Below, in pieces: positions 19,742-34,899 of a DNA stretch of 34,900 nucleotides (the first letter of the stretch is position 1; each line of letters begins with the position of its first letter). Location: contig DASWEH010000541.1 in assembly GCA_036394895.1 (NCBI GenBank), positions 1 to 34,900 of the forward strand, written 5' to 3'. This stretch comes from Anaerolineales bacterium. Lineage in GTDB: Bacteria > Chloroflexota > Anaerolineae > Anaerolineales > Villigracilaceae. Made by a program: the position numbers and the translations under genes. The notes below the pieces were generated by a model. It did no database searches, was not told the origin of the DNA, and worked only from the letters and a program-made list of their open reading frames with translations.

Positions 19742-22366
19742 ATGCCAACTCTTCCGACAATCGAGAATCAGCTAAAAGAAGCTAGTCAACTGACGAATGC
19801 CGTTTGGGCGGCGCTGGTGGAGCGTGAGGCGGGCAAATGGCGCGTGCTTGCCAATTATCGTCTTGCCAAAAAGACTCATCCGGCGCTGGTAAAGTTTCTT
19901 AGCAAGACGGAGGTAGATTCATGGCTAAGCGGGGCGCTCAGTGGCGGCCAAAGCCGTTCAGCCTCCCTCCCTGAGTCCAGCAAGCTGGAGGCAGGCAGGT
20001 TGTTTGCATTTCCTCTTCTTGGAGGGTCGCGTGTGGTTCTAGTGGGGGCAAGTCAATTAACCAACGAATCACAACGCTTATGGCGCCTGGTCATTTCCGC
20101 AATGCAGATGGAAGTTCCCTCTGTTGATTTTTCTCCTTCCTCTTCCGTTGCGGCATCGTTACTGGTGCCCGACCTGGATTCCGAAAGTCCCTACGATATG
20201 CCGCGCGCATTGGGTCGCGCGCTTGCCTCTTTTGTGCGTCTTGTTTCTGTGCAAGGAGGCTGGTTGGCCGTACGTCGTGGTGACACGCTCGAGATCCATG
20301 CGCAATGGAATGCGCCTGCCTGTGAAAATCTCATCCTTTCTATGGATGGGAATACAATTTTGCGCCGCTTGAGTCGCAACCTTACGTCAATGGTTGTCCA
20401 CCGCGACAATCCACTGTGGGCCGAGATTCCACATAAAGGCTTGAAATCGAGTACGAAGTTATGGATCTGCGTACCGCTAATCATCGGGCAACGCCTGATT
20501 GGTGTACTGGCTTTATGGCGGACGGCTGCTTTTAAGAACGATGAGTGGAATCGCTTGATGGACATGACGACTCAAATCGCACCAGCCATTGAAACAATTA
20601 TTACGTTCGCAGAAATGGCAGGTCATTTGCGTCGTCTAGCCATATTGAATGATTTCGCTCTCACTGTTTCTTCGGGCCGCAATCTTGACCAAATTGCGCG
20701 CCACATGTTTGCATTGCTCTCGCGTGCGTTTGGCACTGAACTCATCATCCTTTATTTGCTTTCCTCCGATAATCGTCTGTTGAGTGAATATCGTACCAGT
20801 GAAGGCAATATGATTGCATCCGTACAGAATGCGCAGAAGCACAGAATTGCTGCCTTGCTTAACAGCAACCAATTAATGCGATTGGGCGAAATTGCGGCCG
20901 ATATTCAATTACCGTTGTATAACAAAGTCTTATCAGGCTTGTACGTCCCTTTGCGTTTCCGGGGGCAGACCATTGGGATACTCTGTGTCGAAAGTTTAAT
21001 AAGCGACGCATTTAATCTGTATGATGAAAATTTGATGGTTGTGATTGCCAGCCACCTTGCCAGTCTTGCCGATTACACACGTTTGCGTGAAGAAGCCGAA
21101 GGCCGCGCCCGTAACCTTGGGCTTATCCATGAAGTCGTTCAACAGGTCATTGGACTTACCAATCCTCATGAGGTAGCTGAGATCACCTCGGAACTGCTGG
21201 CCCGGTATTTTGCCTATGAACTTTGTTCGGTCTTCATCGCCGATGAACGGGGAGACTTAACGATTGGTGGCTTTGGCGGTACGAGTCAAAACGTTGTGAA
21301 ACGTGCCATAAAATCCTTTGAGTACCCGCTCAGCGGTGGGATCACAGGTTATGTTTTTGAGACTGGTGAGAGTATCGTGGTAAACGATGTATTGCAGGAT
21401 AGCCGTTATCGTTCCATCAAGGGCTGGCAGGCAGGTTCTGAGATGTGTGTGGCGATCCGCGAGGGAGAAAAAATTCTGGGAATCGTGGATGTGGAAAGTA
21501 GCTCACGCAATGCCTTCACCCACAACGATTTCATCGCTATGGAATCTCTTGCTGGGATTCTTGCCACTGTGATTACCAGTGCCGATCAATATCAGAGACT
21601 GCAGATCATGATCAGTCAATTAAGTTCCACACAGGTAGAGTTGCAGGCCCGTATGGAGGCGCAACGTTCTGCAGAGAATCGTCTTGTGCAGGCTGCAAAA
21701 CTTGCGGCGGTGGGCGAAATGGCCGCAGGCATTGCGCACGAGTTGAATAACCCGTTGACTTCCGTCACTGGCTTTGCAGAATTAGCTCTGGCTGACATTC
21801 CAAAAGATAGTGAAACCCGCAAAGATTTGGAGATCGTTATGCGTGAGGCGGTCCGGGCAAGAGATGTAGTGCGCCGTCTTCTCGATTTTGCGCGGCAAGG
21901 CGAAAGCGCCCGCGTGCGCGCCTCATTGAATGAAGTGGTCGAGGATGTCGTTGCGTTGAGTCGTCACCTTATTCGTACCAGTGGCGTGACATTAAAGCTT
22001 GAGCTTGAAAAAAATATTCCCTGGATTTTGGTGGACGTAAATCAGATGAAACAAGTATTGCTCAATCTGATTCATAATGCTTTGCAGTCCATGCCGTCTG
22101 GCGGTGAAATGAGCATTGCAACAGAGTCAGCCTCTCGCGATGGGCGAGATTGGATCATCGTTTCTGTTTGTGATACAGGTGTGGGAATCCCGAGATTGGA
22201 TCAGGCCCGTATCTTTGAACCGTTTTATACGACAAAAGGCAATCAAGGCGGAACGGGCTTAGGACTCTCTGTCACCTATGGAATTATCACAGATCATGGC
22301 GGGCAAATAGAGGTGGAAAGCCAGCCGGGTAGTGGATCAAAGTTCACAGTGTGGTTGCCTCAATAG
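19742..22366 (+). CDS. Soluble multi-GAF sensor histidine kinase (NtrB-type HisKA/HATPase)
   Basis: Three GAF repeats (VPLIIGQRLIGVL, VPLRFRGQTIGIL, SEMCVAI..GEKILGIVDVES) plus a degenerate N-terminal one; GEMAAGIAHELNNP, NLIHNA, DTGVGI, FYTTK, GTGLGL. Confidence 0.93.
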   Translation: MPTLPTIENQLKEASQLTNAVWAALVEREAGKWRVLANYRLAKKTHPALVKFLSKTEVDSWLSGALSGGQSRSASLPESSKLEAGRLFAFPLLGGSRVVLVGASQLTNESQRLWRLVISAMQMEVPSVDFSPSSSVAASLLVPDLDSESPYDMPRALGRALASFVRLVSVQGGWLAVRRGDTLEIHAQWNAPACENLILSMDGNTILRRLSRNLTSMVVHRDNPLWAEIPHKGLKSSTKLWICVPLIIGQRLIGVLALWRTAAFKNDEWNRLMDMTTQIAPAIETIITFAEMAGHLRRLAILNDFALTVSSGRNLDQIARHMFALLSRAFGTELIILYLLSSDNRLLSEYRTSEGNMIASVQNAQKHRIAALLNSNQLMRLGEIAADIQLPLYNKVLSGLYVPLRFRGQTIGILCVESLISDAFNLYDENLMVVIASHLASLADYTRLREEAEGRARNLGLIHEVVQQVIGLTNPHEVAEITSELLARYFAYELCSVFIADERGDLTIGGFGGTSQNVVKRAIKSFEYPLSGGITGYVFETGESIVVNDVLQDSRYRSIKGWQAGSEMCVAIREGEKILGIVDVESSSRNAFTHNDFIAMESLAGILATVITSADQYQRLQIMISQLSSTQVELQARMEAQRSAENRLVQAAKLAAVGEMAAGIAHELNNPLTSVTGFAELALADIPKDSETRKDLEIVMREAVRARDVVRRLLDFARQGESARVRASLNEVVEDVVALSRHLIRTSGVTLKLELEKNIPWILVDVNQMKQVLLNLIHNALQSMPSGGEMSIATESASRDGRDWIIVSVCDTGVGIPRLDQARIFEPFYTTKGNQGGTGLGLSVTYGIITDHGGQIEVESQPGSGSKFTVWLPQ

Positions 22367-22378
22367 CGGTCGGAAACT

Positions 22379-23971
22379 ATGGAATCAATTTCAGTCCTCG
22401 TTGTAGATGACGAACCTGGCATAGCGCTCCTATGCGACCGTATCTTGAGCCGTGCCGGCTATGATGTTATCTCTGAAACAAATCCGCGCACAGCCATAGA
22501 AGATCTCCAACAAAAGCATTTTGACCTGCTTTTGGTTGATATTCGAATGCCCGAAGTAGATGGCTTTGATGTAATCTCCCGAGCCCAAATGGTTCAGCCT
22601 GATATTGCTGTCCTGGTCATGACTGGTTTTGGCACAGTCGAAACGGCCATCCGCGCGTTGCGTCAGGGCGTGGACGGTTTGCTGTTGAAACCGTTCAAGC
22701 AAAGTGAAGAACTTCTCCAAGCGGTGCGACAGGCATTGATGGATAACCAGCGCAAGCGTGATACAGCGCGCGTTTCGGCGCTGCGTCCATTATTCAATGT
22801 CACCGAAACACTCTTTGCCGAAACAAACCGGGATCGCTTGCTGGATCTCATTGTCACAGCCATATGTGATCATTTGAGTTGTTCGAATGTTGCCTACTAT
22901 CACGTTGAGGACGGGAAGGTTACTGTCGTCGCGCAACGCGGGAAAGTCCTTCAGGTGGACGCATCCAATTTTGCCGCGCAGCTTGTGAGCCGCGTGGATG
23001 CAGATGGGGATCCAATTGTAGTCAATGCAACAGGACCTGGTGAGGAGGATGCGCAATCGCTTCTTTCGACACTTCGGCTTGGTACAGCAATTCTGATACC
23101 AGTTGCACGCTCCAACCTGCATAGCGTATTTTTTGCTGCGCGGGACGTTGGCGTCGCAGAACGTCCTTTCCGAGGTGCGGATCTGGAGATGTTTTTCGTT
23201 CTGGCCCGCCAAGCTGTGGTTGCGATGGAAAACGCAAGCTTATACGCGGATTTGCGTGCCTATGTTCGCCGTGTAGAAGATTCGCAGCAAGCTTTGCTTC
23301 GAGCAGAAAAAATGGCGGCGGCTGGACGCTTAACCGCATCTATTGCGCATGAAGTCAACAATCCATTGCAGTCGGTTCAAAATTGTTTGCATCTGGCGGG
23401 TCGTGAAGATTTGCCGCCTGAGAAGCGTCAAGAATATTTTGATCTTGCAAGGAATGAACTTGAGCGGTTAATGAAAACAACGCAACGCATGTTAGATTTT
23501 TATCGTCCCGGCTCAGCCAAAGTTGAGCAGGTGGATATTTTGGAACTACTGCAACATGTTCTCAGCTTAACGGCTCAGCAGCTGGGTCAGCGTCATATTG
23601 AAGTTCAGACGGACTTACCACAATCACTCCCCGAAATTTATGCAGTTAGCAGCCAAATCCAACAAATATTTTTCAATTTGATCTTGAATGCACTGGACGC
23701 GATGCCTGCTGGTGGTAAATTGGAAATTCGGGCCCGCGAACGCGACCGTGGTGTTGAAATGACTTTTCAAGATACGGGTCCTGGCATTCCTGAAAGCAAA
23801 CGTAACGATATCTTTGAGCCATTTTTTAGTACAAAAGAAGGCGGCACGGGGCTTGGCTTGACTGTGAGTTACAATATTGTTACCGCACACGGTGGTACTC
23901 TTGATCTTGTCAATGGAAACAAGCCTGGTGCCTGCTTTCGATTATTTTTGCCTATGGGAGATAAACAATGA
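22379..23971 (+). CDS. REC-GAF-histidine kinase (N-terminal receiver hybrid)
   Basis: VLVVDDE...VDIRMP...MTG...LLKP, GAF ending MENASLY, SIAHEVNNP, DTGPGI, GTGLGL. Confidence 0.93.
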   Translation: MESISVLVVDDEPGIALLCDRILSRAGYDVISETNPRTAIEDLQQKHFDLLLVDIRMPEVDGFDVISRAQMVQPDIAVLVMTGFGTVETAIRALRQGVDGLLLKPFKQSEELLQAVRQALMDNQRKRDTARVSALRPLFNVTETLFAETNRDRLLDLIVTAICDHLSCSNVAYYHVEDGKVTVVAQRGKVLQVDASNFAAQLVSRVDADGDPIVVNATGPGEEDAQSLLSTLRLGTAILIPVARSNLHSVFFAARDVGVAERPFRGADLEMFFVLARQAVVAMENASLYADLRAYVRRVEDSQQALLRAEKMAAAGRLTASIAHEVNNPLQSVQNCLHLAGREDLPPEKRQEYFDLARNELERLMKTTQRMLDFYRPGSAKVEQVDILELLQHVLSLTAQQLGQRHIEVQTDLPQSLPEIYAVSSQIQQIFFNLILNALDAMPAGGKLEIRARERDRGVEMTFQDTGPGIPESKRNDIFEPFFSTKEGGTGLGLTVSYNIVTAHGGTLDLVNGNKPGACFRLFLPMGDKQ

Positions 23972-24702
23972 AGTCGCATATTCTTGTTGTTGATGATGAG
24001 CCTGTTGCGCGCCAATCACTGACCGATATCCTTCGGCTAGAGGGTTACACAGTGAACTCCGTGCCAAATGGACAGGCTGCGGTAGAGTATGTTCGCACGC
24101 ATCCTGTCGAATTAATCATTGTTGACCTGCGCATGCCGGGTATGGATGGGCTGGAGGTTGTTCAGGTGGTTAACCAGATCTCGCCCGAAACGGAGGTCAT
24201 TCTGCTAACAGCATTTGGCTCAACCGAATCTGCCGTTCAGGCATTACGCTTACGCATTCATGACTATTTGCTTAAGCCAGCTCCGCCAACCCAGGTAATG
24301 AATAGCGTTAAGAAGGGATTAGCTCGGCGTGAAGCACGTTTGAAGATGCGAGGCGGCCCTTCGACTTCAGATATTGATGAGGGGATGGCAGAGTTCTCAT
24401 TAAAAGATGGCACACATATTGACCTTTCCCGTAGGCAAGTCCGCAAAAAGGAGCAAATCATCCATTTGACTCCTGCGGAGGGGCGTCTGTTGCGCGTGCT
24501 GATCGAAAATCCGGGACGTGTCTATTCACATCGTGAATTGGTTTTGCTTGTTCAGGGATACGATACGTCTCAACGAGAGGCCCCCGAAATTTTGCGTCCG
24601 CTGGTAAGCAGGTTACGACATAAGTTGGAATCGTTCCCCTCTCTTTCTGATCGGATTATCAGTGTACGTGGTACAGGATATTTATACGAGTCTGAAAAGT
24701 AG
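23968..24702 (+). CDS. DNA-binding response regulator, OmpR/PhoB-type winged helix
   Basis: ILVVDDE, VDLRMP, LTA, YLLKP; C-terminal LTPAE..LL..L, VSRLRHKL, SVRGTGY; ATGA overlap. Confidence 0.93.
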   Translation: MKSHILVVDDEPVARQSLTDILRLEGYTVNSVPNGQAAVEYVRTHPVELIIVDLRMPGMDGLEVVQVVNQISPETEVILLTAFGSTESAVQALRLRIHDYLLKPAPPTQVMNSVKKGLARREARLKMRGGPSTSDIDEGMAEFSLKDGTHIDLSRRQVRKKEQIIHLTPAEGRLLRVLIENPGRVYSHRELVLLVQGYDTSQREAPEILRPLVSRLRHKLESFPSLSDRIISVRGTGYLYESEK

Positions 24703-24737: not shown

Positions 24738-24770
24738 ATAAACCCACCGTGAAGAATTTGGTGGGTTTAT
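24738..24770. terminator. Probable bidirectional terminator between the response regulator and EamA genes
   Basis: 11-bp stem ATAAACCCACC/GGTGGGTTTAT between convergent stops. Confidence 0.7.
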
Positions 24771-25711
24771 TCATGTTTATAAAGGTCTGCTGGAAAATCA
24801 GGTGGCTGCAACCAGCTTAGTAATCCATGGGGATGTGCGGGCTTGGACGGCGGCCTTTCGAACCAGGCCAATAAAAGGCTGATCGCTAATCCAGCGGTGC
24901 CAAGCCATTGGAGCGAAGTCAAACTTTCGCCCAAAAGCAGGTGACTGAACGAAATTGCCACAAGTAATTCACCAAGTCCAAACAAGGCGGTCTGCATGCC
25001 TCCAATATGTTTTACACCTAGGAAGAGCAGTAATCTCGAAAAGAAAGTAACTGTAGTGAGCCCCAGCACGGGAAGCCAGGGCGCATTTCCTGTGGGAAGA
25101 CTTCGATCAAAAATCAGATAGGCTGGTACCACAACCAAACTCATGGCCAGCAAGGTATAGACTGTCACGGTGGGTGCAGGGATATCGTATAATACGCGCT
25201 GATTGATGGGGAGGTGGAGTGCATACAAAGCAGCCGCGATAAGCATAAAGATTACGCCCCATACGTCAAGCTTTCCTGTTTCTACTCTCGTGAGCAGAAA
25301 TGTAGATAGAATAGCAATGACAATTCGAAACCCCGTTAGTCTTGAATGAGATTGTTTATCAAGTTGAAGCCAGAGCGCGACAAAGAAGGGATAGAGTGCA
25401 TAAAGCATTTGCGCAATGCTGGCATTCAATTTACTTAAGCCAACATAGTAAAAGATCGAACCAATCCCGTTAACTGTACCTGCCATCAAACAACCTAGAA
25501 GACCCACAGGATAAATGTAAAGGCTTCGACGTCTAAACACTGCCATAATCAGCACGAGAAGAAGGGCAGCCATGCTTGTGCGCAATGCCACCACCGCCAG
25601 AGGTGAAAATTTGCCCACTCCCATAGCGGCCTTGCCAAAGACGGGGGCCAAGCCAAGAAAGAATGCAGAGATCACCGCGGCGTTGATCCCCGGGTTTCGG
25701 CCAATTCGCAT
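24767..25711 (-). CDS. EamA/DMT family transporter
   Basis: About 10 TM helices in two repeats; AVISAFFLGLAPVFGK, VVALR, YYVGL..LNASIA.ML..LYP, LLGE.LT.LQWLG. Confidence 0.88.
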   Translation of the reverse strand: MRIGRNPGINAAVISAFFLGLAPVFGKAAMGVGKFSPLAVVALRTSMAALLLVLIMAVFRRRSLYIYPVGLLGCLMAGTVNGIGSIFYYVGLSKLNASIAQMLYALYPFFVALWLQLDKQSHSRLTGFRIVIAILSTFLLTRVETGKLDVWGVIFMLIAAALYALHLPINQRVLYDIPAPTVTVYTLLAMSLVVVPAYLIFDRSLPTGNAPWLPVLGLTTVTFFSRLLLFLGVKHIGGMQTALFGLGELLVAISFSHLLLGESLTSLQWLGTAGLAISLLLAWFERPPSKPAHPHGLLSWLQPPDFPADLYKHE

Positions 25712-25808: not shown

Positions 25809-27481
25809 TTATCGTATAAGGGACCGAACTTCTTCCAGAAACTCATCGTTCAAGAAATCACCTTTCAACATGAGGGATTGAATTTGCCCCTGCAATCGGC
25901 TTTTCTCATCCACGGTCAACTCTTTTGCAGTGGCAACAATGACGGGGATGTTGGCCGTTTCTGGTTGACTGCGTAAAGAATCCAGTACCGCAAAGCCGTC
26001 GACTTCAGGCATCATCAGATCAAGGATTACCAAATCAGGCCGTTCTCTTGTGACGAGCTCAATTGCCTCACGCCCATTGGCTGCTTCTGAGATTTCAAAA
26101 TCTCCCTGTGATTGGAGAATGCGGCGGATGAGGCGACGCGCCTCGGATGTATCATCAACCACCACCACGCGCGGGAAGCGGTTTGGTGTCACATTGTTGA
26201 GGGCGGAAAGCAGGCCTTCCTGGGGCGTTGGTGTAAGTTCTTGTCTTTGAAGATCCACATCCCGAGTCCAGCCCTCGCCAAAGAGGAATTGTTCGGCAGG
26301 CAACGTATGTCCTGTGCAATTGACGACAACTGTGTCGGTTGATTTGATGATCCCAGCCCGTACCAGCTTGAAAAGCCCAGCAAAGGCGACAGCCGCGGCC
26401 GGCTCTGCTGAAATACCCTCCATTTTAGCGAGAACATGCATGGCACGGAAAGCGTCTTCATCGCTGACGCTTTCGAATACGCCATGTGTTTCATTGACTT
26501 GCTTGCGCAGCATAGTATATGTCCTGCCCGGATCGCCTGTTGCAAGGGTTTCAATACGAGTTTGGGGCGAAAGAACAGGTTCAGCCTTTTCGAGTCCTTT
26601 TTTCCAGCTTTCAACCATTGGGGCACAGCCTTCGACTTGTATCGGCGCCATGGCAGGAATATGATCGATCAGTCCAAGCTGCTGTAGCTCCCGAAAACCT
26701 TTATATACCCCCAAGGGTCCCATACCGCCACTGATCGCCTGGACATACCAATCGGGTGTGCGCCATTTGGGGGCTTCATGGGTCGAACCCGGAGGTACAC
26801 CTTGTTGCATGGTTAATTGTTCCGCAATTTCAAAGGCAATCGTTTTCATGGCTTCAACGGCGGTGACAGTCCGCGCACCCATATCCTGGTAAAGCCCGCG
26901 TTGCCGCGCAAATTCGGCTGCCACCTGCTTGGCCTGATCATAAGAGCCTGTGATCTTTACCACCTGGCTGCCGTACAGAGCGATTTCACGCATCTTGACC
27001 CCGGGGACAAGACTGGTGACGAAAGCCCAGAGCTTGATCCCAGCCCGAGCCGCATACGCGGAAAGTGAAATGGCAACATTGCCTGTGGAAGCGGCAACCA
27101 TTTCAGTCACGCCGCCTTCCTTGAGTGCCGCGATCGTAACGGCGGCCTGCCTATCTTTGAACGAAGATGTTGGTCCCTGCCGTTCATCCTTAATGTAAAG
27201 ATTTGGCAGTCCAAGCATCATACCCAGATTCGCGGCTTGAATAAGTGGCGTACCCCTTCGCCCAGCCTCAATGTGGGGTTGGGATTATGAATGGGCAGCA
27301 GCTCTTGGTAACGCCATAAATCAAAAGGCCGATTTTTGATTTCTGAAGGGAACGTACTTGCGACCTCCGTCATGTCGTATTCTGCTGCTCGCCATTGACT
27401 GTTACATTGGGGACAATGCATGGAACTGGGCATGAATGGCGCGGCGTGGCCACAGTCCAAACACCTGATTACAAATGACAT
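25809..27481 (-). CDS. Threonine-synthase-like fold-type II PLP enzyme fused to a C-terminal receiver domain; 1-base frameshift at 27253-27256
   Basis: N-part (ORF 27218-27520; ATG 27481 with SD AGGA) has CxxC..CxxC, LWRY..LLP, LGEG; continues in the other frame as GTPLIQAANLG, LYIKDE..GPTSSFKDR (PLP Lys), ASTGN, KTIAFEIAEQL, EGISAEP, TGH; then VVVVDD..ILDLMMPEVDG..VATA..LKG. Confidence 0.85.
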
Positions 27482-27509: not shown

Positions 27510-30500
27510 TCATGCGCCAAGTCTCTTCAATGCACTTTCGATGTTTTTGATTAATTGATCTTCGTTGAGTGAACCTTTGGTGATCAGTCGCTGCCCAAAA
27601 TCGTTCAATTGTTGCTGCTGTTCGTTTGTCAAGCCACCACCACTGACGACCAGTACGGGAATATCGCGTAAAACGGAGTTTTCGCGAAGTTTCTCAAGTA
27701 TGGTGAAACCATCCATTTCCGGCATAAAAAGATCCAGGATGATGGCGTGCGGTGTTTTTTTGATGATCGTTTCCCATCCTTTACGGCCACCTTCCGCAAG
27801 GATTGGCTTATATTGGCCGTGCTGATTTAAAATCTTCTCAATCAAGCGCAGATCGTTGGGATCGTCATCAATCACTAATACTTCATGAATCGTACCATCC
27901 TTATTCAAACGATCAAGCGCACACACTAAATCCTCTTCGAGAATGGGTTTGACAAGATAATCAGCTGCACCGAGGCTGAACCCTTTATCCGCCTGTTCCA
28001 TGATGGAGCAAATGATAACAGGGTAATCTCGTGTCGCTGGGTCAGATTTAAGATCCGTGAGAACCGACCAACCATCCCTATTTGGCATCATGATATCGAG
28101 TGTGATGGCGTAGGGCTTAATCTTCAAGACCTGTTCTTTGGCTTTTGCAGGATCAGTTAGCGGTATAACGTAATACCCTTGTGGGTTGAGGTAGCGTTCA
28201 TATAACCCAATTACTTGAGGGTCATCATCAATTGCCAGGACTACTTTCTTACCTTCAGGGATCTCCTGTTCTGGCTGATAGTAGAGAGGTAGAGTAAACC
28301 AAAACGTTGAACCTGTGCCAGCCCCACTATGAATCCCAATGCGTCCACCGTGCAGCTGCACAAGATTTGCACAGATGGAAAGTCCAAGGCCCGAGCCACC
28401 GCTCTTGCGTGTTGCTGATCCATCCACTTGTGAAAAGGCCTGGAATAGCTTCTTCTGATCTTCAATGGAAATGCCAGGACCGGTGTCGATGACGTTGATC
28501 AGGGCTTCCATTTTCCCTGTCGGACTCCTTTGGACAATCGCCTCCACAGTAATGGAACCTTCGTCAGTGAACTTGGATGCATTCGAAATGAGATTAAGCA
28601 ATACTTGTCGAACGCGCATCATATCGCCGCGCACGGAAGGCATGTTTGCTGGAATGCGCTGAATCAGCTGGATCGGTTTTTCTTTTACCAGTCCTTTGGC
28701 AGTGGACATCACACTGGTTGCCATTTCAGAGAGATGGACTTCCTCAAAGTTAAGTTCCATCTTGCCTGCTTCAATACGCGCGAGATCAAGAATATCGTTG
28801 ATCAATCCCAACAGATGTTGACCCGAGTTATAAATGGCAGTCAGATCCTGCTGCTGCATATCGCTGACGGGACCATCAATGCCTTTCAGAATAACGCGTG
28901 AGAAACCAATGATGGAGTTCAACGGCGTTCGGAGTTCATGACTCATATTCGCCAGGAATTGACTCTTTAACTGATCTACTTCGCGGAGGTCTTTAATCAA
29001 TTGTTGAGAGAGTTCGTAGGAGCGGGCATTATCAATGGCAACTGCCACCTGATCTGCCAGTGACTGCAACACGGAAAGATCATCTTTGGTGAACGCGTAG
29101 GCTTGTGTGGACTGGATGTCAATCACACCGACGCTACGTGAGCCAATTCGAAGAGGAATGGCGACTTCAGCGCGGGTATCCAGCAGGAAGGGATTAGGAA
29201 CGTAGAGAGGCTCAATGTCCGTGTCATTGACCAGCCTTGGCTCAATGCTTTCGGCCACCTTGCCAATAATGGAATTGGAACCCACAACTACTGCATACCT
29301 TTGCGCTTTCATTTTCTCGCCCGCCTCGCCAATGGCTTCACGGAGAACCACGTTGAATCCTGTCTCTTCAATAATATAGATTGCAGCGTAGTAAAAGCCG
29401 AATCGTTCGCTGATCAGGTTGACGGTGCGGGTAAAGATTGTGTTGAGGTCGAGTGTTGAGGTAACCAGACGCCCAATTTCTGAGGAAGCAGCAAGATAAT
29501 CATTTCGCCGCTTCAAAATCTCCTCTGATAACTTTCGCTCGGTAATATCTTGATGGACAGCCAGAAAACCGATGGTTTTTCCACTTTCATCAAGAATAGG
29601 ACTATTCGTTCCTTCAATAGGAATTAGAGTGCCGTCCTTCGTTTTGTTTGTAATTTCCCCTGAAACCGTTCCGCCCGAAAGTAAAGTTTCCCAAAAATGC
29701 TTGTATTGTTCATCAGGTATAAGACCTGATTTGAAGATGCGCGGAGTCTTTCCGATTGCTTCTTCAGGCGAAAAACCATAGACCTTTTCAAAAGCAGGGT
29801 TGGCATACTGAATAACGCCTTCCAAGTCAGTAATAAAAACAGCGTTATCAGAACGGTCAATGCCAAGTTTGAATTTTTGGATCTCACGTTCCGCAAGGAA
29901 ACGTTCAATAGCAGATGAGACCTGCGTCGCGATGATGGAAAGAATCTCTTTATGTTGTTCCGTAATGCGGGTTCTAGGGTCATAAGACTGGATGGCGATA
30001 ACACCTGAAACAACTTGTTTTGATCGCAGCGGAACACCAAGCCAGTCTACGCTCCTGGCACCATCGCTTGCTACTTCACCAGCAGCTTCGAGATCAGCAA
30101 AAATTTCTGGAGTGGTACGTAACGGCTTGCCCGTGCGAATCACATAGCTTGTAAGCCCTCTACCAAGCTTTCGCGGGGACCAATCTTCATCAATTTCATC
30201 TAAATGATATGGGAAGGTGATCCAGTTGGTTTTCGGATCATGTTGTGCAATATAGAGATTGTTTACGGGTAGAAGTGGCTTAATAGCCTCATGAATGGAT
30301 TGAAATAATTCATCCATGGTTTTGGAGGAAAGCACGCTTTCAGAGATTTGCGTGATAGCAATTTGTGTAAGTTCATTAAATTTACGGTCCGTAATATCAC
30401 GCGCGACCCAGAACACCTGATCTTCATTTAATTTCGAGACATTTGCATCGAACCATAAGTTATTTCCGGCAATATTAAGCGGGTATTCAATTCTTATTGT

Positions 30501-32123
30501 CTCATTACTGCTCAACGCCTCATGAATTGTCTCCATGAATTGGCTGTGCAATTCTAGCGGTAAAATCTCTTTTATATACCTACCTATCATTTCATCGGGA
30601 GGCCGTATAAGTAAGGACGGATTGGTTGGAGCAATTCGAACGTAGCGACCCTCTTTGTCATACACGATAATCACATCATTCATAGATGCAAATAACGCGC
30701 GAAGTTCAGCCTCAGATTTTTGTGTCTCTTGGAAAAGGCTGGCATTTTGGACAGCAATCGCCGCCTGACGAGCCAGACTGGTCAAGAATTCCAACTCTGC
30801 CGTAGTAAATTCTTTGCCCTGACCTGCGCGCCAAACAGACATCAGCCCGGTTACCTTATCCGCAGATAAGATAGGAACTCCCATGATATGCTCAAAGGGT
30901 CTTTCAACTGTTCCCTGGATAGTAATTGCCTCGGGCTGATTGTTGGCATCATTTACTGTCTGACCCGCTTTTTGCAAAATGATTTTCCCAAGAATGCCCT
31001 GGCCGGTATGAATTGCATCGTTCTTGATCTCTTCTGCATCTGCACCAATGACCGAAATCGCGCGCCACTCATCCATGCCATCTGGGGCTTGCAAATATAC
31101 AGCACTGCTTTCTACCTGAAACAAGTCTCTTGCGTAGGTTGCGATTTTGGCAAGTACCGTTTCCAAATCCAATGTGACCGAGATCTCGCGCCCGACCTCT
31201 GCAAGGATAGTGGTCTCCTGAGCGCGGCGTTGGGCCTCTTGGAATAGGCGCGCATTTTCAATCGCGATGGCAGCTTGACTAGCAATGGTTGTTAAAATAT
31301 CGCGATTGTGCTCGTTATAAAGATTTGGTCTCTGAACGCTTTGTACCGAGATCAACCCGAGCACACGCTCCCCGATCATGAGTGGCACGCCCAACCAGGA
31401 TTGAGAAGGAGTCTCATCCTCATTCAACGCAATAAATTCAATGCCAAGTGACTCCATATGTTTTAGTACATCATTTGGAGCAAATACAGCTCTTTTGTTG
31501 CGAATGATGTAATCTGAAAAGCCGCGGTTTCCTAATTTGCTGGGTGACAGTTGAATCCGCTGGCCCTCTTCAAAGGCTAATGGATAACTTTTTTCTTCCT
31601 TTTTCTGATCGTAGAGGGCAACGAAAAAATTACTGGTGTCCATCAGGCGGCTGGTGTAACGATAAACAACCTCCGCGATTGCTAGCGTGTCCAACTTCGT
31701 CGACAATTCTCGACCCATTTCATTGAGCACACTCAATTCTTCTGCGCGAGTTTGGGTTTCCTGAAATAACCTTGCATTTTCCAGTGCCAATGAAAGCTGA
31801 TCTGCTACCTGTTTTACAAGTAGTTGTTCGTCCTGACTCCAGGTGCGCTGCTCTGACTCATCCAATACCTGTAAAGTTGCCCAGGTGTTTTGTCCCGCCT
31901 GGAATGCAAGTGACATCGCTGATTCCTGTTGTGAAACCTGACTTGCCATTTCAACAGGCTGTCTGACCCTCTTGATTGGATTTATCTCAGAATGTTGAAT
32001 GGACTTCTCTTCTGAGGCGGCGCGTTTAGGCGACACCGGCTTGAATTCCGCAGGCATCTGCTCAGGTTTTGCATCTTCAAATAAATGCTTAAGCCGCTTG
32101 TCGATTGGCTTCTTCTTTGGCAT
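27510..32123 (-). CDS. Soluble hybrid histidine kinase: half-GAF, GAF, GAF, PAS, GAF, PAS, GAF, HisKA, HATPase, REC, REC
   Basis: Repeated ...A(I/L/V)xNA.LFQE GAF ends; PAS ends RDITDRK and QDITERK; FLANMSHELRTPLN, NLISNASKFT, DTGPGI, GSGLGL; receivers LDIMMP and LDLFMP. Confidence 0.95.
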   Translation of the reverse strand: MPKKKPIDKRLKHLFEDAKPEQMPAEFKPVSPKRAASEEKSIQHSEINPIKRVRQPVEMASQVSQQESAMSLAFQAGQNTWATLQVLDESEQRTWSQDEQLLVKQVADQLSLALENARLFQETQTRAEELSVLNEMGRELSTKLDTLAIAEVVYRYTSRLMDTSNFFVALYDQKKEEKSYPLAFEEGQRIQLSPSKLGNRGFSDYIIRNKRAVFAPNDVLKHMESLGIEFIALNEDETPSQSWLGVPLMIGERVLGLISVQSVQRPNLYNEHNRDILTTIASQAAIAIENARLFQEAQRRAQETTILAEVGREISVTLDLETVLAKIATYARDLFQVESSAVYLQAPDGMDEWRAISVIGADAEEIKNDAIHTGQGILGKIILQKAGQTVNDANNQPEAITIQGTVERPFEHIMGVPILSADKVTGLMSVWRAGQGKEFTTAELEFLTSLARQAAIAVQNASLFQETQKSEAELRALFASMNDVIIVYDKEGRYVRIAPTNPSLLIRPPDEMIGRYIKEILPLELHSQFMETIHEALSSNETIRIEYPLNIAGNNLWFDANVSKLNEDQVFWVARDITDRKFNELTQIAITQISESVLSSKTMDELFQSIHEAIKPLLPVNNLYIAQHDPKTNWITFPYHLDEIDEDWSPRKLGRGLTSYVIRTGKPLRTTPEIFADLEAAGEVASDGARSVDWLGVPLRSKQVVSGVIAIQSYDPRTRITEQHKEILSIIATQVSSAIERFLAEREIQKFKLGIDRSDNAVFITDLEGVIQYANPAFEKVYGFSPEEAIGKTPRIFKSGLIPDEQYKHFWETLLSGGTVSGEITNKTKDGTLIPIEGTNSPILDESGKTIGFLAVHQDITERKLSEEILKRRNDYLAASSEIGRLVTSTLDLNTIFTRTVNLISERFGFYYAAIYIIEETGFNVVLREAIGEAGEKMKAQRYAVVVGSNSIIGKVAESIEPRLVNDTDIEPLYVPNPFLLDTRAEVAIPLRIGSRSVGVIDIQSTQAYAFTKDDLSVLQSLADQVAVAIDNARSYELSQQLIKDLREVDQLKSQFLANMSHELRTPLNSIIGFSRVILKGIDGPVSDMQQQDLTAIYNSGQHLLGLINDILDLARIEAGKMELNFEEVHLSEMATSVMSTAKGLVKEKPIQLIQRIPANMPSVRGDMMRVRQVLLNLISNASKFTDEGSITVEAIVQRSPTGKMEALINVIDTGPGISIEDQKKLFQAFSQVDGSATRKSGGSGLGLSICANLVQLHGGRIGIHSGAGTGSTFWFTLPLYYQPEQEIPEGKKVVLAIDDDPQVIGLYERYLNPQGYYVIPLTDPAKAKEQVLKIKPYAITLDIMMPNRDGWSVLTDLKSDPATRDYPVIICSIMEQADKGFSLGAADYLVKPILEEDLVCALDRLNKDGTIHEVLVIDDDPNDLRLIEKILNQHGQYKPILAEGGRKGWETIIKKTPHAIILDLFMPEMDGFTILEKLRENSVLRDIPVLVVSGGGLTNEQQQQLNDFGQRLITKGSLNEDQLIKNIESALKRLGA

Positions 32124-32874
32124 ATTCCATTAACTCCTGAGCAAGGACACGGTACTGTTGCGAGCCGCGGCTGGTAGGCTTGTATTGTGTAATCGGTACA
32201 CCTGCAATCGGGCTTTCTCGAAGTTTTGTATCAATCTCGATCACAGTTGTGAAGACACCCTGCCCAAATGTAGCCTGTAATTGTTCGAAAATATTGCGGT
32301 GCGTGCGGTTTCGTCGATCCAGTAAAGTGACAAGGATTCGGTATGCAAGATTCGGATTACTCTCCTGTCGAACACGGCGAATGATGCCCATCATGTTCCT
32401 AAGAGCATACGCAGAGAAATACTCAGCCTGAGTCGGGATAATGAGCAGATCTGCTGCAGAGAGAGCATTAAGTGTGATTGCGCCCAAAGCAGGAGGACAG
32501 TCAAGCAGGATATATTCATAGGGAAGAGGAGCCGCCTGCAGGGCGGTGCGGAGCGTCGCCATATAATGGCTTCGCATCGGCAGGAATTGTTCTGCGTTCT
32601 CGATCCGTGAATTGGAGGGGACAAGATCCAGATTTTTCACCTCGGTTCGGCGAATAGCGCTTTTGATAGCAACATTGTCAATCAACACGCTTGAAGAATT
32701 AAACTCTACCTCTGCCGCTTCAAGACCCAGGGCAAGGCTCAAGTTTGCCTGCGGATCAAGATCAACCAGTAAAACTCGATGATCCAACTCGGCCAGCGCG
32801 GCACCTAAAGATAAAGTAGAGGTTGTCTTTGCAACCCCACCCTTTTCATTTGACATTGCAATTGTAAATGCCAT
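32089..32874 (-). CDS. Orphan Soj/ParA-family ATPase
   Basis: NEKGGVAKTT (deviant Walker A), VDLDPQANL, LDCPP.LG, IPTQAEYF, L.ESP..G; ATG 32874 with SD AGAGGA; 3' end overlaps the kinase start by 35 bp. Confidence 0.92.
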   Translation of the reverse strand: MAFTIAMSNEKGGVAKTTSTLSLGAALAELDHRVLLVDLDPQANLSLALGLEAAEVEFNSSSVLIDNVAIKSAIRRTEVKNLDLVPSNSRIENAEQFLPMRSHYMATLRTALQAAPLPYEYILLDCPPALGAITLNALSAADLLIIPTQAEYFSAYALRNMMGIIRRVRQESNPNLAYRILVTLLDRRNRTHRNIFEQLQATFGQGVFTTVIEIDTKLRESPIAGVPITQYKPTSRGSQQYRVLAQELMEYAKEEANRQAA

Positions 32875-32901
32875 TTTTCCTCTTGTTTTATCCATTGAAA
32901 A

Positions 32902-34626
32902 TTACTCGGTGCCTTTTACTGACTGCGGAATGACTTCCACTTTGCTGGCACCCAGGGCTTTGCGCAATTCTTCCATTGCGGTTTGAATCATAGATTGTGG
33001 ATCGTTTACACTTCGGATCTTGCCGGTAATATCTGACACCAATCGTTCGCGTTCTGCGCGTCGGGTTGTTTCTTCGAAAAGACGCGCATTTTCCGCGGAA
33101 AGCGCCACCCGTTCGGCAACAGCTTTGATGAGATCGATCTGATCCTGGTTAAGCGCCGCTGTCGATGGGGATTGAACCACCAGTGAGCCAATTGTTTCAC
33201 CGCGTAACACGATTGGTACTACAACTTGGCTAGCTTCCCTTTGATTGGCTCTACTTTTACTTAGTTCTGTCAAATCAAGCCGCTCATGGAGAGGTGACGA
33301 ACCGGCGATGCCGTAGCGATAGCCAAGTAATTTGGTTTCCACAGGCATATGAAGCCAAGCCTCACGGGTCAATTGGCGGCTAATTGATTCTGCGTCTGAG
33401 AGTGCCCGGCGTGTTTCATCAAACAGACGAGCATTCTCAATGGCTAAACTCACTTGATCGGCAAGCAAGCTAAGCATTTGGATGTCTTCCTCGGTAAACG
33501 CTCCTTTTTCTGTGCTTTGCACATCTAAGGCACCAACAATAAGCTTTCCGCTCTTTAGCGGTAGAGCCATTTCAGAATGTGTATCTGGAAGCTCGGGATT
33601 GTCAAAAAACACTGCATCTTCGCCCACATCCATCGCAATACGTGGATTGCCGGTTAATGTTACGTTGCCTACAATGCCTTGCTCCCCCACGCGTAATCGG
33701 TGTCTGCGTTCCAGCATCTGCTTCCCACCCTCACTATTTGCAGCGCTTAATACAGCATATTCATTTGTGTCATCCAAAAGAAAGATACCAACATGGTAGA
33801 AACCAAACCTGCTGCTAATCACGATTGTGATGTGAGGCAATAATTCCTGAAGATCTCGAATGGAAGTAATGGCTTGTGTCACCTGAGTTAGAGCTTCAAA
33901 TTGCGCGGCCCGGCGGTGTATCTGTGAATTGGCTTGGTCCAATTCCTGATTTCGATTCGCAAGTTCATGAGTGCGATCTTCTACGCGTAGTTCCAGCTCG
34001 TCGCGTAGCTCGGTCAGTTGCTGATTGCTTACTCTCAATTCAGTTGCAGTTATATTCGATCTTTTCAGAGCGCCCTGCAGGCTGCTGATAATCAGATAAA
34101 GAAATATTGAGCCGAAAATAAATAATACTGTGCCTTCGATTGCCACTTCAACAGCGGGACCTGGCACATAATTAATGATTCCAATATTTTCTGCATATGC
34201 CAGTCCGAATCCGGAAGCTACGCTGAGGATAGTAAATCCGATAGCGGGTTTCCATCCTAGCAACAATCCAGCCATCAGTATGACTACAAAGTAACTGGTG
34301 AATGCTGTCCCTCTAACGCCACTTCCACTGAGTGCAATCATCGTGCTCGCTAGCCAGATGGTTGTGACATGCAGATACGCGGCAAACCGTACTTGGCCTG
34401 CCTTCATCAAAAACCAAACAACGGCAAGGATAGTGACGATCGCGGCTAGTATTAAGTTATCAATACCAAAAGGTTCGGCACCAGTTCCTGTGCGAACAAT
34501 AATAAAGAGCAACAGAATTGGAATATTACTCAAGACAATTATATTGAGGTATGACGCAGAACGCGTTTTTTCCTCGTCGTCAGTGAAGGTGGGAGCCGCA
34601 AAGTATTTCAAGAATGAATTTGACAT
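32902..34626 (-). CDS. Membrane GAF-domain receptor-like protein without an enzymatic output domain
   Basis: About 6 N-terminal TM helices, signalling-helix-like LELRVEDRTHEL, full GAF (FYHVGIFL...NPELPDTHSEMALPL...ENARLF), then a C-half plus N-half GAF module. Confidence 0.88.
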   Translation of the reverse strand: MSNSFLKYFAAPTFTDDEEKTRSASYLNIIVLSNIPILLLFIIVRTGTGAEPFGIDNLILAAIVTILAVVWFLMKAGQVRFAAYLHVTTIWLASTMIALSGSGVRGTAFTSYFVVILMAGLLLGWKPAIGFTILSVASGFGLAYAENIGIINYVPGPAVEVAIEGTVLFIFGSIFLYLIISSLQGALKRSNITATELRVSNQQLTELRDELELRVEDRTHELANRNQELDQANSQIHRRAAQFEALTQVTQAITSIRDLQELLPHITIVISSRFGFYHVGIFLLDDTNEYAVLSAANSEGGKQMLERRHRLRVGEQGIVGNVTLTGNPRIAMDVGEDAVFFDNPELPDTHSEMALPLKSGKLIVGALDVQSTEKGAFTEEDIQMLSLLADQVSLAIENARLFDETRRALSDAESISRQLTREAWLHMPVETKLLGYRYGIAGSSPLHERLDLTELSKSRANQREASQVVVPIVLRGETIGSLVVQSPSTAALNQDQIDLIKAVAERVALSAENARLFEETTRRAERERLVSDITGKIRSVNDPQSMIQTAMEELRKALGASKVEVIPQSVKGTE

Positions 34627-34641
34627 GGTCCTATACTCCGG

Positions 34642-34899
34642 CTACTTGGAACCGTTACCCTTCCCGCTTTGAAACTGGATCACAACTTCTGAACCTGGCA
34701 GGACTCGACCCAGTTCCTCAACCGCAGTCTGCAAGACGTTGCGCATATTGACGGATGCGCCGATCTTGCCAGAGATATCTGCTGTGAGGCGGTCAATCTC
34801 TGCGCGGCGTTGCGTCGTTCGCAAGAGCGTCGCTGACTCCAATGCGAGCGACAGGCGGTCAGCAACTGCCCTGGCGATATCCACTTCATCCGGATCCCA
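34642..34899 (-). CDS. C-terminus of another GAF-domain protein (5' part outside the window), paralogous tail to 32902-34626
   Basis: Frame open to the window edge: WDPDEVDIARAVADRLSLALESATLLRTTQRRAEIDRLTADISGKIGASVNMRNVLQTAVEELGRVLPGSEVVIQF. Confidence 0.85.
   Translation of the reverse strand, partial: WDPDEVDIARAVADRLSLALESATLLRTTQRRAEIDRLTADISGKIGASVNMRNVLQTAVEELGRVLPGSEVVIQFQSGKGNGSK

Follow-up and report, generated by a model that had tools for sequence, protein, structure and literature searches.

At this locus we asked whether a gene that reads as a threonine synthase joined to a response-regulator receiver encodes the housekeeping enzyme or, as the first-pass annotation had proposed, a PLP enzyme of different substrate or product that would be controlled by phosphorylation. 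The window, which is the whole stretch of 34,900 nucleotides that was analysed, comes from a bacterium of the order Anaerolineales. CheB and PleD/WspR are response regulators with enzymatic output domains. Galperin's reviews of response regulators reportedly cover REC fusions to metabolic enzymes, perhaps including one to threonine synthase, and this domain arrangement may therefore have been published before. The literature that we searched, to which those reviews were external, contained no description of a PALP-receiver fusion. According to PMC5847659, a paper whose main text gives no hits for PALP or pyridoxal, both bacteria and archaea have receivers joined to standard metabolic enzymes.

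As a class, the fusions of receivers to metabolic enzymes are thus known, though barely tested. The system described here has in common with the response regulators of enzymatic output (CheB, PleD/WspR and the REC-metabolic enzyme fusions) a receiver, an enzyme and an adjoining kinase. It departs from them in the kind of enzyme, a PLP amino-acid enzyme, in the C-terminal location of its one or two receivers, and in the co-occurrence of a dedicated transporter. With a kinase and a transporter of its own, such an enzyme would offer a direct way to test whether phosphorylation gates small-molecule chemistry.

The fusion gene and its reading frame

The gene lies on the minus strand at positions 25809-27481 and, with an assembly error ignored, encodes 557 amino acids arranged as a Zn ribbon, a PLP domain (PALP, Pfam E-value 4e-63), a linker and a C-terminal receiver (Response_reg, E-value 9e-21). 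All the motifs named in the first-pass annotation are present in the minus-strand frame 25809-27251: PTSSFKDR (with K109), ASTGN, DMGARTVTAVEAMKT, AISGGMG, EP and TGH, followed in the receiver by D443-D444, D488, T518 and K540. The 77 N-terminal codons, which hold the Zn ribbon, are in another frame of the same strand (27481-27251). The two frames part at 27253-27256, where a stretch of four C is one base short and the contigs of all four sequencing runs have a fifth C; these runs stand for at most four samples from three studies and two of them are possibly the window's own source. Because the contigs of all four runs and the intact 557-residue protein record P0001 carry the full frame, the frameshift is an assembly error, and P0001 was used as the reference for residue numbers. 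That the gene is a pseudogene in the source organism, which the frameshift in the window might have suggested, is almost certainly not the case given the base found in the four runs, the intact record and the relatives of the gene. Among the matches listed, at least 120 are 93-100% identical to the 480-residue query, which marks the family as large and strongly conserved.

Along the protein, the zinc-ribbon-like CxxC...CxxC motif (C7, C10, C23 and C26; 27404-27463) is kept wherever the N-terminus is covered and would be expected to bind zinc. K109 (27156-27158), the PLP Schiff-base lysine, aligns with K61 of Thermus thermophilus ThrC. The ASTGN loop (27078-27092), by homology the site of the substrate carboxylate, is followed by V or A where ThrC has T88. 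Further on come the substrate loop D200-T214 (26841-26885), the PLP-phosphate loop Q248-G255 (26718-26741), the conserved PLP-site motif E360-P361 (26400-26405) and T390-G391-H392 (26307-26315), after which T-x-P stands where ThrC has G-L-K. The linker (26172-26306) has a conserved E-G-L-L-x-A-L helix at 422-428 and leads into the receiver (25812-26171), whose predicted phospho-acceptor D488 is encoded at 26019-26021 and is followed by T518 and by K540 with its adjacent Gly.

Relation to the housekeeping threonine synthase

The closest characterised family by sequence, at about 30-33% identity, is ThrC (TIGR00260 and PRK08197; PDB 1UIM/1V7C, 2ZSJ, 2D1F and 6CGQ/6NMX). With it the fusion shares the fold-type II PLP domain, the Schiff-base lysine, the STGN loop, EP and TG. 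It differs from ThrC in the attached receiver, in the replacement of G-L-K after TG, in the positions of T88, N154, S155, R160 and N188, all of which are changed, and in its profile scores. P0001 falls below all ThrC cut-offs (255 against 303 for PRK08197 and 153 against 167 for TIGR00260), which are not sharp limits, as P0126, a likely receiver-less member of the family, passes both narrowly. A separate canonical thrC, for which the first-pass annotation suggested looking, sits beside thrB on contig C54 of the same genome and scores 301 bits with TIGR00260. Nine of the ten other fusion genomes checked also have a separate ThrC-type gene, at 43-86% identity to the thrC of the source genome. 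In the tenth and two of its congeners (G312, G435 and G467, 95-97% complete) searches detected no homoserine kinase from either family and no ThrC scoring above cut-off, and the fusion is retained in all three; these organisms are possibly threonine auxotrophs or use an unusual route. Judged by sequence, the fusion is not the housekeeping threonine synthase. Many of its members are named threonine synthase in their source records by automatic annotation, and that annotation is probably wrong.

Elsewhere in the source genome (L218, G000:C682:1-6449) there is a further ThrC-like gene without an equivalent of Arg160, close to a gene resembling a selenium-dependent xanthine dehydrogenase; it possibly has a role in purine breakdown.

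To see how far the changes extend, we aligned to P0001 a set of 427 different full-length fusions, which reduce to 131 representatives at 80% identity. Entry to the set required the FKDRQ motif and a length of 500-830 residues, so that K109 is necessarily invariant. Every one of the 427 keeps S132, G134, N135, K163, Y181, K213, E360, G391 and H392. In Thermus ThrC numbering, read from the alignment with P0001, we take T88, N154, S155, R160, N188 and K116 to be ligands of the substrate phosphate. K61 and K116 are kept, while T88 is replaced by V or A, N154 by G (in 426 of 427), S155 by A or I and N188 by G; at position 208, the R160 equivalent, none of the 427 has Arg. Most of the ThrC phosphate ligands thus appear to be lost family-wide. 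The remodelled substrate site of the first-pass annotation therefore stands as a property of the family; the DMGAR sequence in it, in turn, is a local form found in the clade of the window's protein. Basic residues are common elsewhere in the loop, with R/K at position 204 in 127 of the 131 representatives, R/K at 201 in 92 (M in 16) and K/R at 209 in 76. In the window's clade 204 alone remains basic, and 201 and 209 have lost their charge.

Likeness to cysteate synthase

According to PMC11211663, cysteate synthase catalyses the opening step in the conversion of L-phosphoserine to sulfonolipids. The Alistipes finegoldii enzyme CapA2 (PDB 9K3C/9K3O) is a member of known structure, and according to its title entry 9K3O holds a phosphoserine-PLP aldimine. 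When CapA2 is put in register with the fusion, it has an acidic residue at 200, G202, A203, K204, I206, R209 and M212, together with a Q-A-V-G-S-G-T-G loop. Two Streptomyces cysteate synthases that pass the TIGR03844 cut-off show the same pattern, but with Leu at 212. What these enzymes and the fusion have in common is the acidic 200, G202, a small or aliphatic 203, a basic 204, I or V at 206, Arg at 209 and the Q-A-V loop. The window's protein matches at 200, 202-204, 206 and 212, and its PLP-phosphate loop is of the Q-A-V/I-x-x-G-x-G type with Gly at the position of ThrC N188. The substrate loops of the fusion largely match the cysteate synthase form rather than that of threonine synthase.

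The likeness has limits. Of the RR pair of cysteate synthases, no fusion keeps the first Arg (208), which ThrC has as well, and the window's clade also lacks the second (209). The fusion has FKDRQ and STGN, as in ThrC, where cysteate synthase has FKELE and SAGN. It also has an attached receiver, and we saw no sulfonolipid or coenzyme M genes adjoining it. With TIGR03844 the 480-residue part of the fusion scores 97 bits against a cut-off of 324.9 and true members at 398-430. Because the score is this far below the cut-off and Arg 208 is lost, we do not regard the fusion as a cysteate synthase by membership. What remains shared is the fold-type II PLP domain with its N-terminal extension, the acidic-x-G-small-basic substrate loop, the Q-A-V-x-x-G-x-G loop and the same side of an unrooted tree. 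The change of specificity put forward in the first-pass annotation is consistent with these loops and with the scores below the ThrC cut-offs; the substrate itself is a prediction. The match does point to the first substrates for an assay.

Graham et al. in 2009 reportedly dealt with the origin of cysteate synthase. At the chosen thresholds there was no match to this enzyme in 151 genomes of the phylum, and the two annotated Streptomyces sequences used above come from plasmid records; L216 had no usable frame and was left out. In Streptomyces, the plasmid-borne cysteate synthases (L212:4872-6173 and L213:3842-5188) lie among genes of the dihydroxyphenylglycine type, with an adenylation-domain gene nearby in L212 and MbtH in L213.

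Structure models and phylogeny

An AlphaFold model built with 128 sequences reached a pLDDT of 88.5 and a pTM of 0.85 over the whole chain, compared to a pTM of 0.70 with 36 sequences. This rise would be compatible with a fixed placement of the receiver. Model confidence is lower over the last 40 residues of the receiver, where no clear beta-5 strand is formed. Compared to 48,161 representative chains, the model found CapA2 with phosphoserine-PLP first (Z 42.2, rmsd 3.0, 377 residues aligned) and ThrC at Z 40.0, a lead that owes part to the N-terminal extension common to CapA2 and the fusion; for an earlier model plant ThrC came first (Z 42.9 against 41.3). By sequence, a search of structures places ThrC (2zsj, E-value 2e-56) closer than CapA2 (9k3c, E-value 2e-21). 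A complex prediction of a PLP dimer with the receiver scored 0.00 in two runs whose controls came out unfolded, and was uninformative.

In a phylogeny with ThrC and cysteate synthase, the fusions, their stand-alone relatives and the cysteate synthases stand apart from all ThrC rows in quick trees. The split has SH-aLRT supports of 99 (75-row tree), 97 (with outgroups, loops in) and 96 (unrooted, two loops removed), which are quick values with the cysteate synthases on a long branch. A smaller tree of 37 rows was built without P0164 and without the majority of the 75 rows. When the tree is rooted and the loops are removed, the grouping of fusion with cysteate synthase drops below 80 and is no longer upheld, and an AU test does not reject a placement of the fusions with canonical ThrC (p 0.091). 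The loop match is shown, and a sister relation between the fusion and cysteate synthase is at most likely.

Distribution and types of the fusion

A profile of the PLP domain found the fusion in 56 of 201 genomes sampled from the class. The class is abundant in soils, sediments and sludge. A sample of 301 genomes from the phylum gave full-length matches in 34, of which eight belong to two families that lie outside the class. Fusion records that carry a title are mostly from Anaerolineales, Anaerolineae or Chloroflexota, and the PALP+REC clusters present in the ESM Atlas are mostly Chloroflexota. One record titled Lewinellaceae bacterium (L096) has a fusion at 75% identity, and its title or bin is possibly wrong; at the chosen thresholds no cysteate synthase was matched in 41 genomes sampled around its own (G338).

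A subfamily of stand-alone sisters (P0134, P0284-P0299, of which one is named from Candidatus Binatia, P0131, P0133, P0136, P0140, P0142 and P0153) has both loops the same as the fusions at 44-51% identity and is basal to them in the tree. These proteins are uncharacterised and, unlike the fusions, have no receiver and in most cases keep Arg at 208 and/or 209. Since receiver-less relatives with the same loops exist, the substrate site most likely changed before the fusion event, as far as can be read from these sequences. In a metagenome scan of 80 loci, 75 of the 77 scored were fusions and one was a stand-alone relative (L131), the sole such locus seen, whose gene sits after a group-1 glycosyltransferase gene.

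There is also a second type of fusion, 45-50% identical to the first, at L021-L028, L031, L032, L047, L048 and L050. It has a receiver-less kinase before it and a stand-alone receiver after it, and some genomes have both types. A threonine synthase of the PRK08197 type directly follows the type-2 cassette at L023, L025, L028, L038, L047 and L050. In two distant families the cassette adjoins a pair of a receiver and a GNAT acetyltransferase (L022:4597-5837, L031:2151-3446 and L032:2340-3592); the acetyltransferase could modify the product of the enzyme. Some members of the family have two receivers behind the PLP domain (L038:8675-10786, L136 and L196; P0123 and P0125).

The receiver, its kinase and the transporter

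The first-pass annotation had noted that the receiver has all canonical residues, and across the 427 fusions these are close to invariant (D444 in 425, D488 in 426, T/S518 in 426 and K540 in 425). The residue after the Lys is Gly in 425 of the 427, where Pro is usual. The likeness that had been noted to the last receiver of the neighbouring kinase is real but not unique. Among 102 receiver hits that the family profile found in the genome, and leaving aside the fusion's own, the neighbour's receiver ranks second at 110 bits, after that of a kinase on contig C97 (113 bits). In a FastTree phylogeny the fusion receiver falls among hybrid kinases' last receivers, with 25 further receivers of the genome standing outside that group (support 80), and it is not placed with that of its own neighbour. 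We considered a recent local copy of the neighbouring kinase's receiver and found no support for it, as the tree shows an old shared subfamily and the C97 kinase scores as high.

The neighbour is a hybrid histidine kinase (27510-32123, minus strand; four GAF, two PAS, HisKA, HATPase and two REC domains) that ends 28 nt before the fusion and is the likely phosphoryl donor. Among 171 loci with a gene directly upstream of the fusion, a set biased to close relatives in which some genomes count twice, 157 have a kinase core there. Seventeen of these kinases themselves lack a receiver (three confirmed with Pfam), so that the fusion would be the first receiver available. The same gene run continues upstream with a ParA/MinD-like ATPase (32089-32895, minus strand) and a membrane GAF protein without a kinase domain (32902-34626, minus strand). 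At L035:4688-5488 and L037:3558-5305, in two families, S-adenosylmethionine methyltransferase genes (Methyltransf_19) stand just before the kinase.

On the other side, 97 nt downstream of the fusion, is an EamA/DMT transporter (24767-25711, minus strand). Of the 80 closest genome loci, 77 have EamA immediately after the fusion. Among 34 selected genomes, EamA is present in 15 of the 18 that have the fusion, compared to none of the 16 that lack it. Over the 201 genomes of the class, 48 have both, eight the fusion alone, seven EamA alone and 138 neither, where 15 with both would be expected under independence; kin are not independent, and these counts overstate the significance. Of the seven with EamA alone, six are from one family and have the weakest matches. 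The pairing also holds where the two genes are unlinked, for example in G272 and G232. According to PMC11005379, those members of the EamA family that have been characterised are exporters, whose substrates are cysteine/O-acetylserine, aromatic amino acids or amino acids of the C3 kind.

A scan for promoters and terminators gave no more sites than shuffled sequences. The EamA gene is flanked by two short inverted repeats. Facing it on the plus strand (19742-24702) is a convergent trio of a GAF kinase, a REC-GAF-kinase and an OmpR-type regulator, whose position is kept in many relatives.

Proposed mechanism and alternatives

The reading that we prefer, and hold with evenly balanced confidence, is that the enzyme carries out a beta-elimination or beta-replacement on an amino acid of the serine type, that phosphorylation gates this reaction and that EamA moves the product. 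The adjacent kinase, whose linkage to the fusion is observed, would pass a phosphoryl group to D488, and the phosphorylated receiver would gate the PLP domain allosterically. The chemistry would be that of a C3 unit by way of an aminoacrylate, and the product would be exported by EamA. Our leading candidate for the substrate, put forward tentatively, is O-phospho-L-serine, for which R/K204 and K163 would make up what is left of the anion site. Since the window's clade has lost two more basic residues (201 and 209), a leaving group of lower charge is also possible there. One point that counts against an output role is the C-terminal position of the receiver, which is unusual for an output regulator.

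This same point can be turned into a different explanation, in which the PLP domain is a sensor. It would bind an amino acid, or turn it over slowly, and so alter how readily its receiver takes up phosphate from the kinase, making that receiver a regulated sink for phosphate; EamA would bring in the ligand or take it away. MocR/GabR regulators use a PLP domain in this way. In favour of this, the receiver shares a subfamily with the last receivers of hybrid kinases, some members have two of them, the stand-alone receiver after type-2 loci could be the real output, and the Arg that both characterised relatives retain is missing. Against it, the catalytic positions and the zinc ribbon are all conserved, which is not decisive given that MocR keeps the PLP lysine too, and receiver-less relatives with the same loops give the domain an enzymatic history. 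We regard the sensor as unlikely, though it is the main alternative. Less likely again is a second, regulated threonine synthase or an O-phosphohomoserine lyase, in which relocated basic residues at 201, 204 and 209 would hold the phosphate and EamA would export threonine or homoserine. Threonine synthases are indeed the best profile and sequence matches, their loops vary in other annotated subfamilies, the AU test allows the grouping, and the sources give many members this name, if automatically. However, the scores below every ThrC cut-off, the ThrC-type genes found separately in nine of ten fusion genomes, the change of five of the seven phosphate ligands of ThrC and the retention of the fusion in genomes where no homoserine kinase was detected all speak against it. 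The fusion could also be a weakly active regulatory subunit that controls a partner PLP enzyme as a heterodimer, for example the PRK08197-type threonine synthase, which has the Arg and follows the fusion and stand-alone receiver at the six loci named above. The window's type has no such neighbour, EamA being the usual next gene, and the strict conservation of the active site is unexpected for a passive subunit, which makes this a poor prospect.

If the fusion is a gated enzyme, as we prefer, then kinase, enzyme and exporter might together form a circuit that makes a signal without transcription. Phosphorylation would start the synthesis of a non-protein, beta-substituted alanine, EamA would secrete it as a signal from cell to cell or along a filament, and membrane GAF/Cache receptors of the same operon would read it. 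We offer this as a long shot. Were it true, it would amount to an autoinducer-like system in about a quarter of the Anaerolineae genomes sampled.

A separate observation concerns the GAF domains of the gene run. The kinase-less GAF proteins (32902-34899, minus strand) seem to end in the first half of a GAF domain, and the kinase seems to start with the second half of one (31750-31945, minus strand). Across loci L011-L210 the GAF tail is C-terminal in 82 hits to GAF proteins and the head is N-terminal in 87 hits to kinases. If this half-domain reading is right, accessory receptors could plug into the kinase through the split GAF domain.
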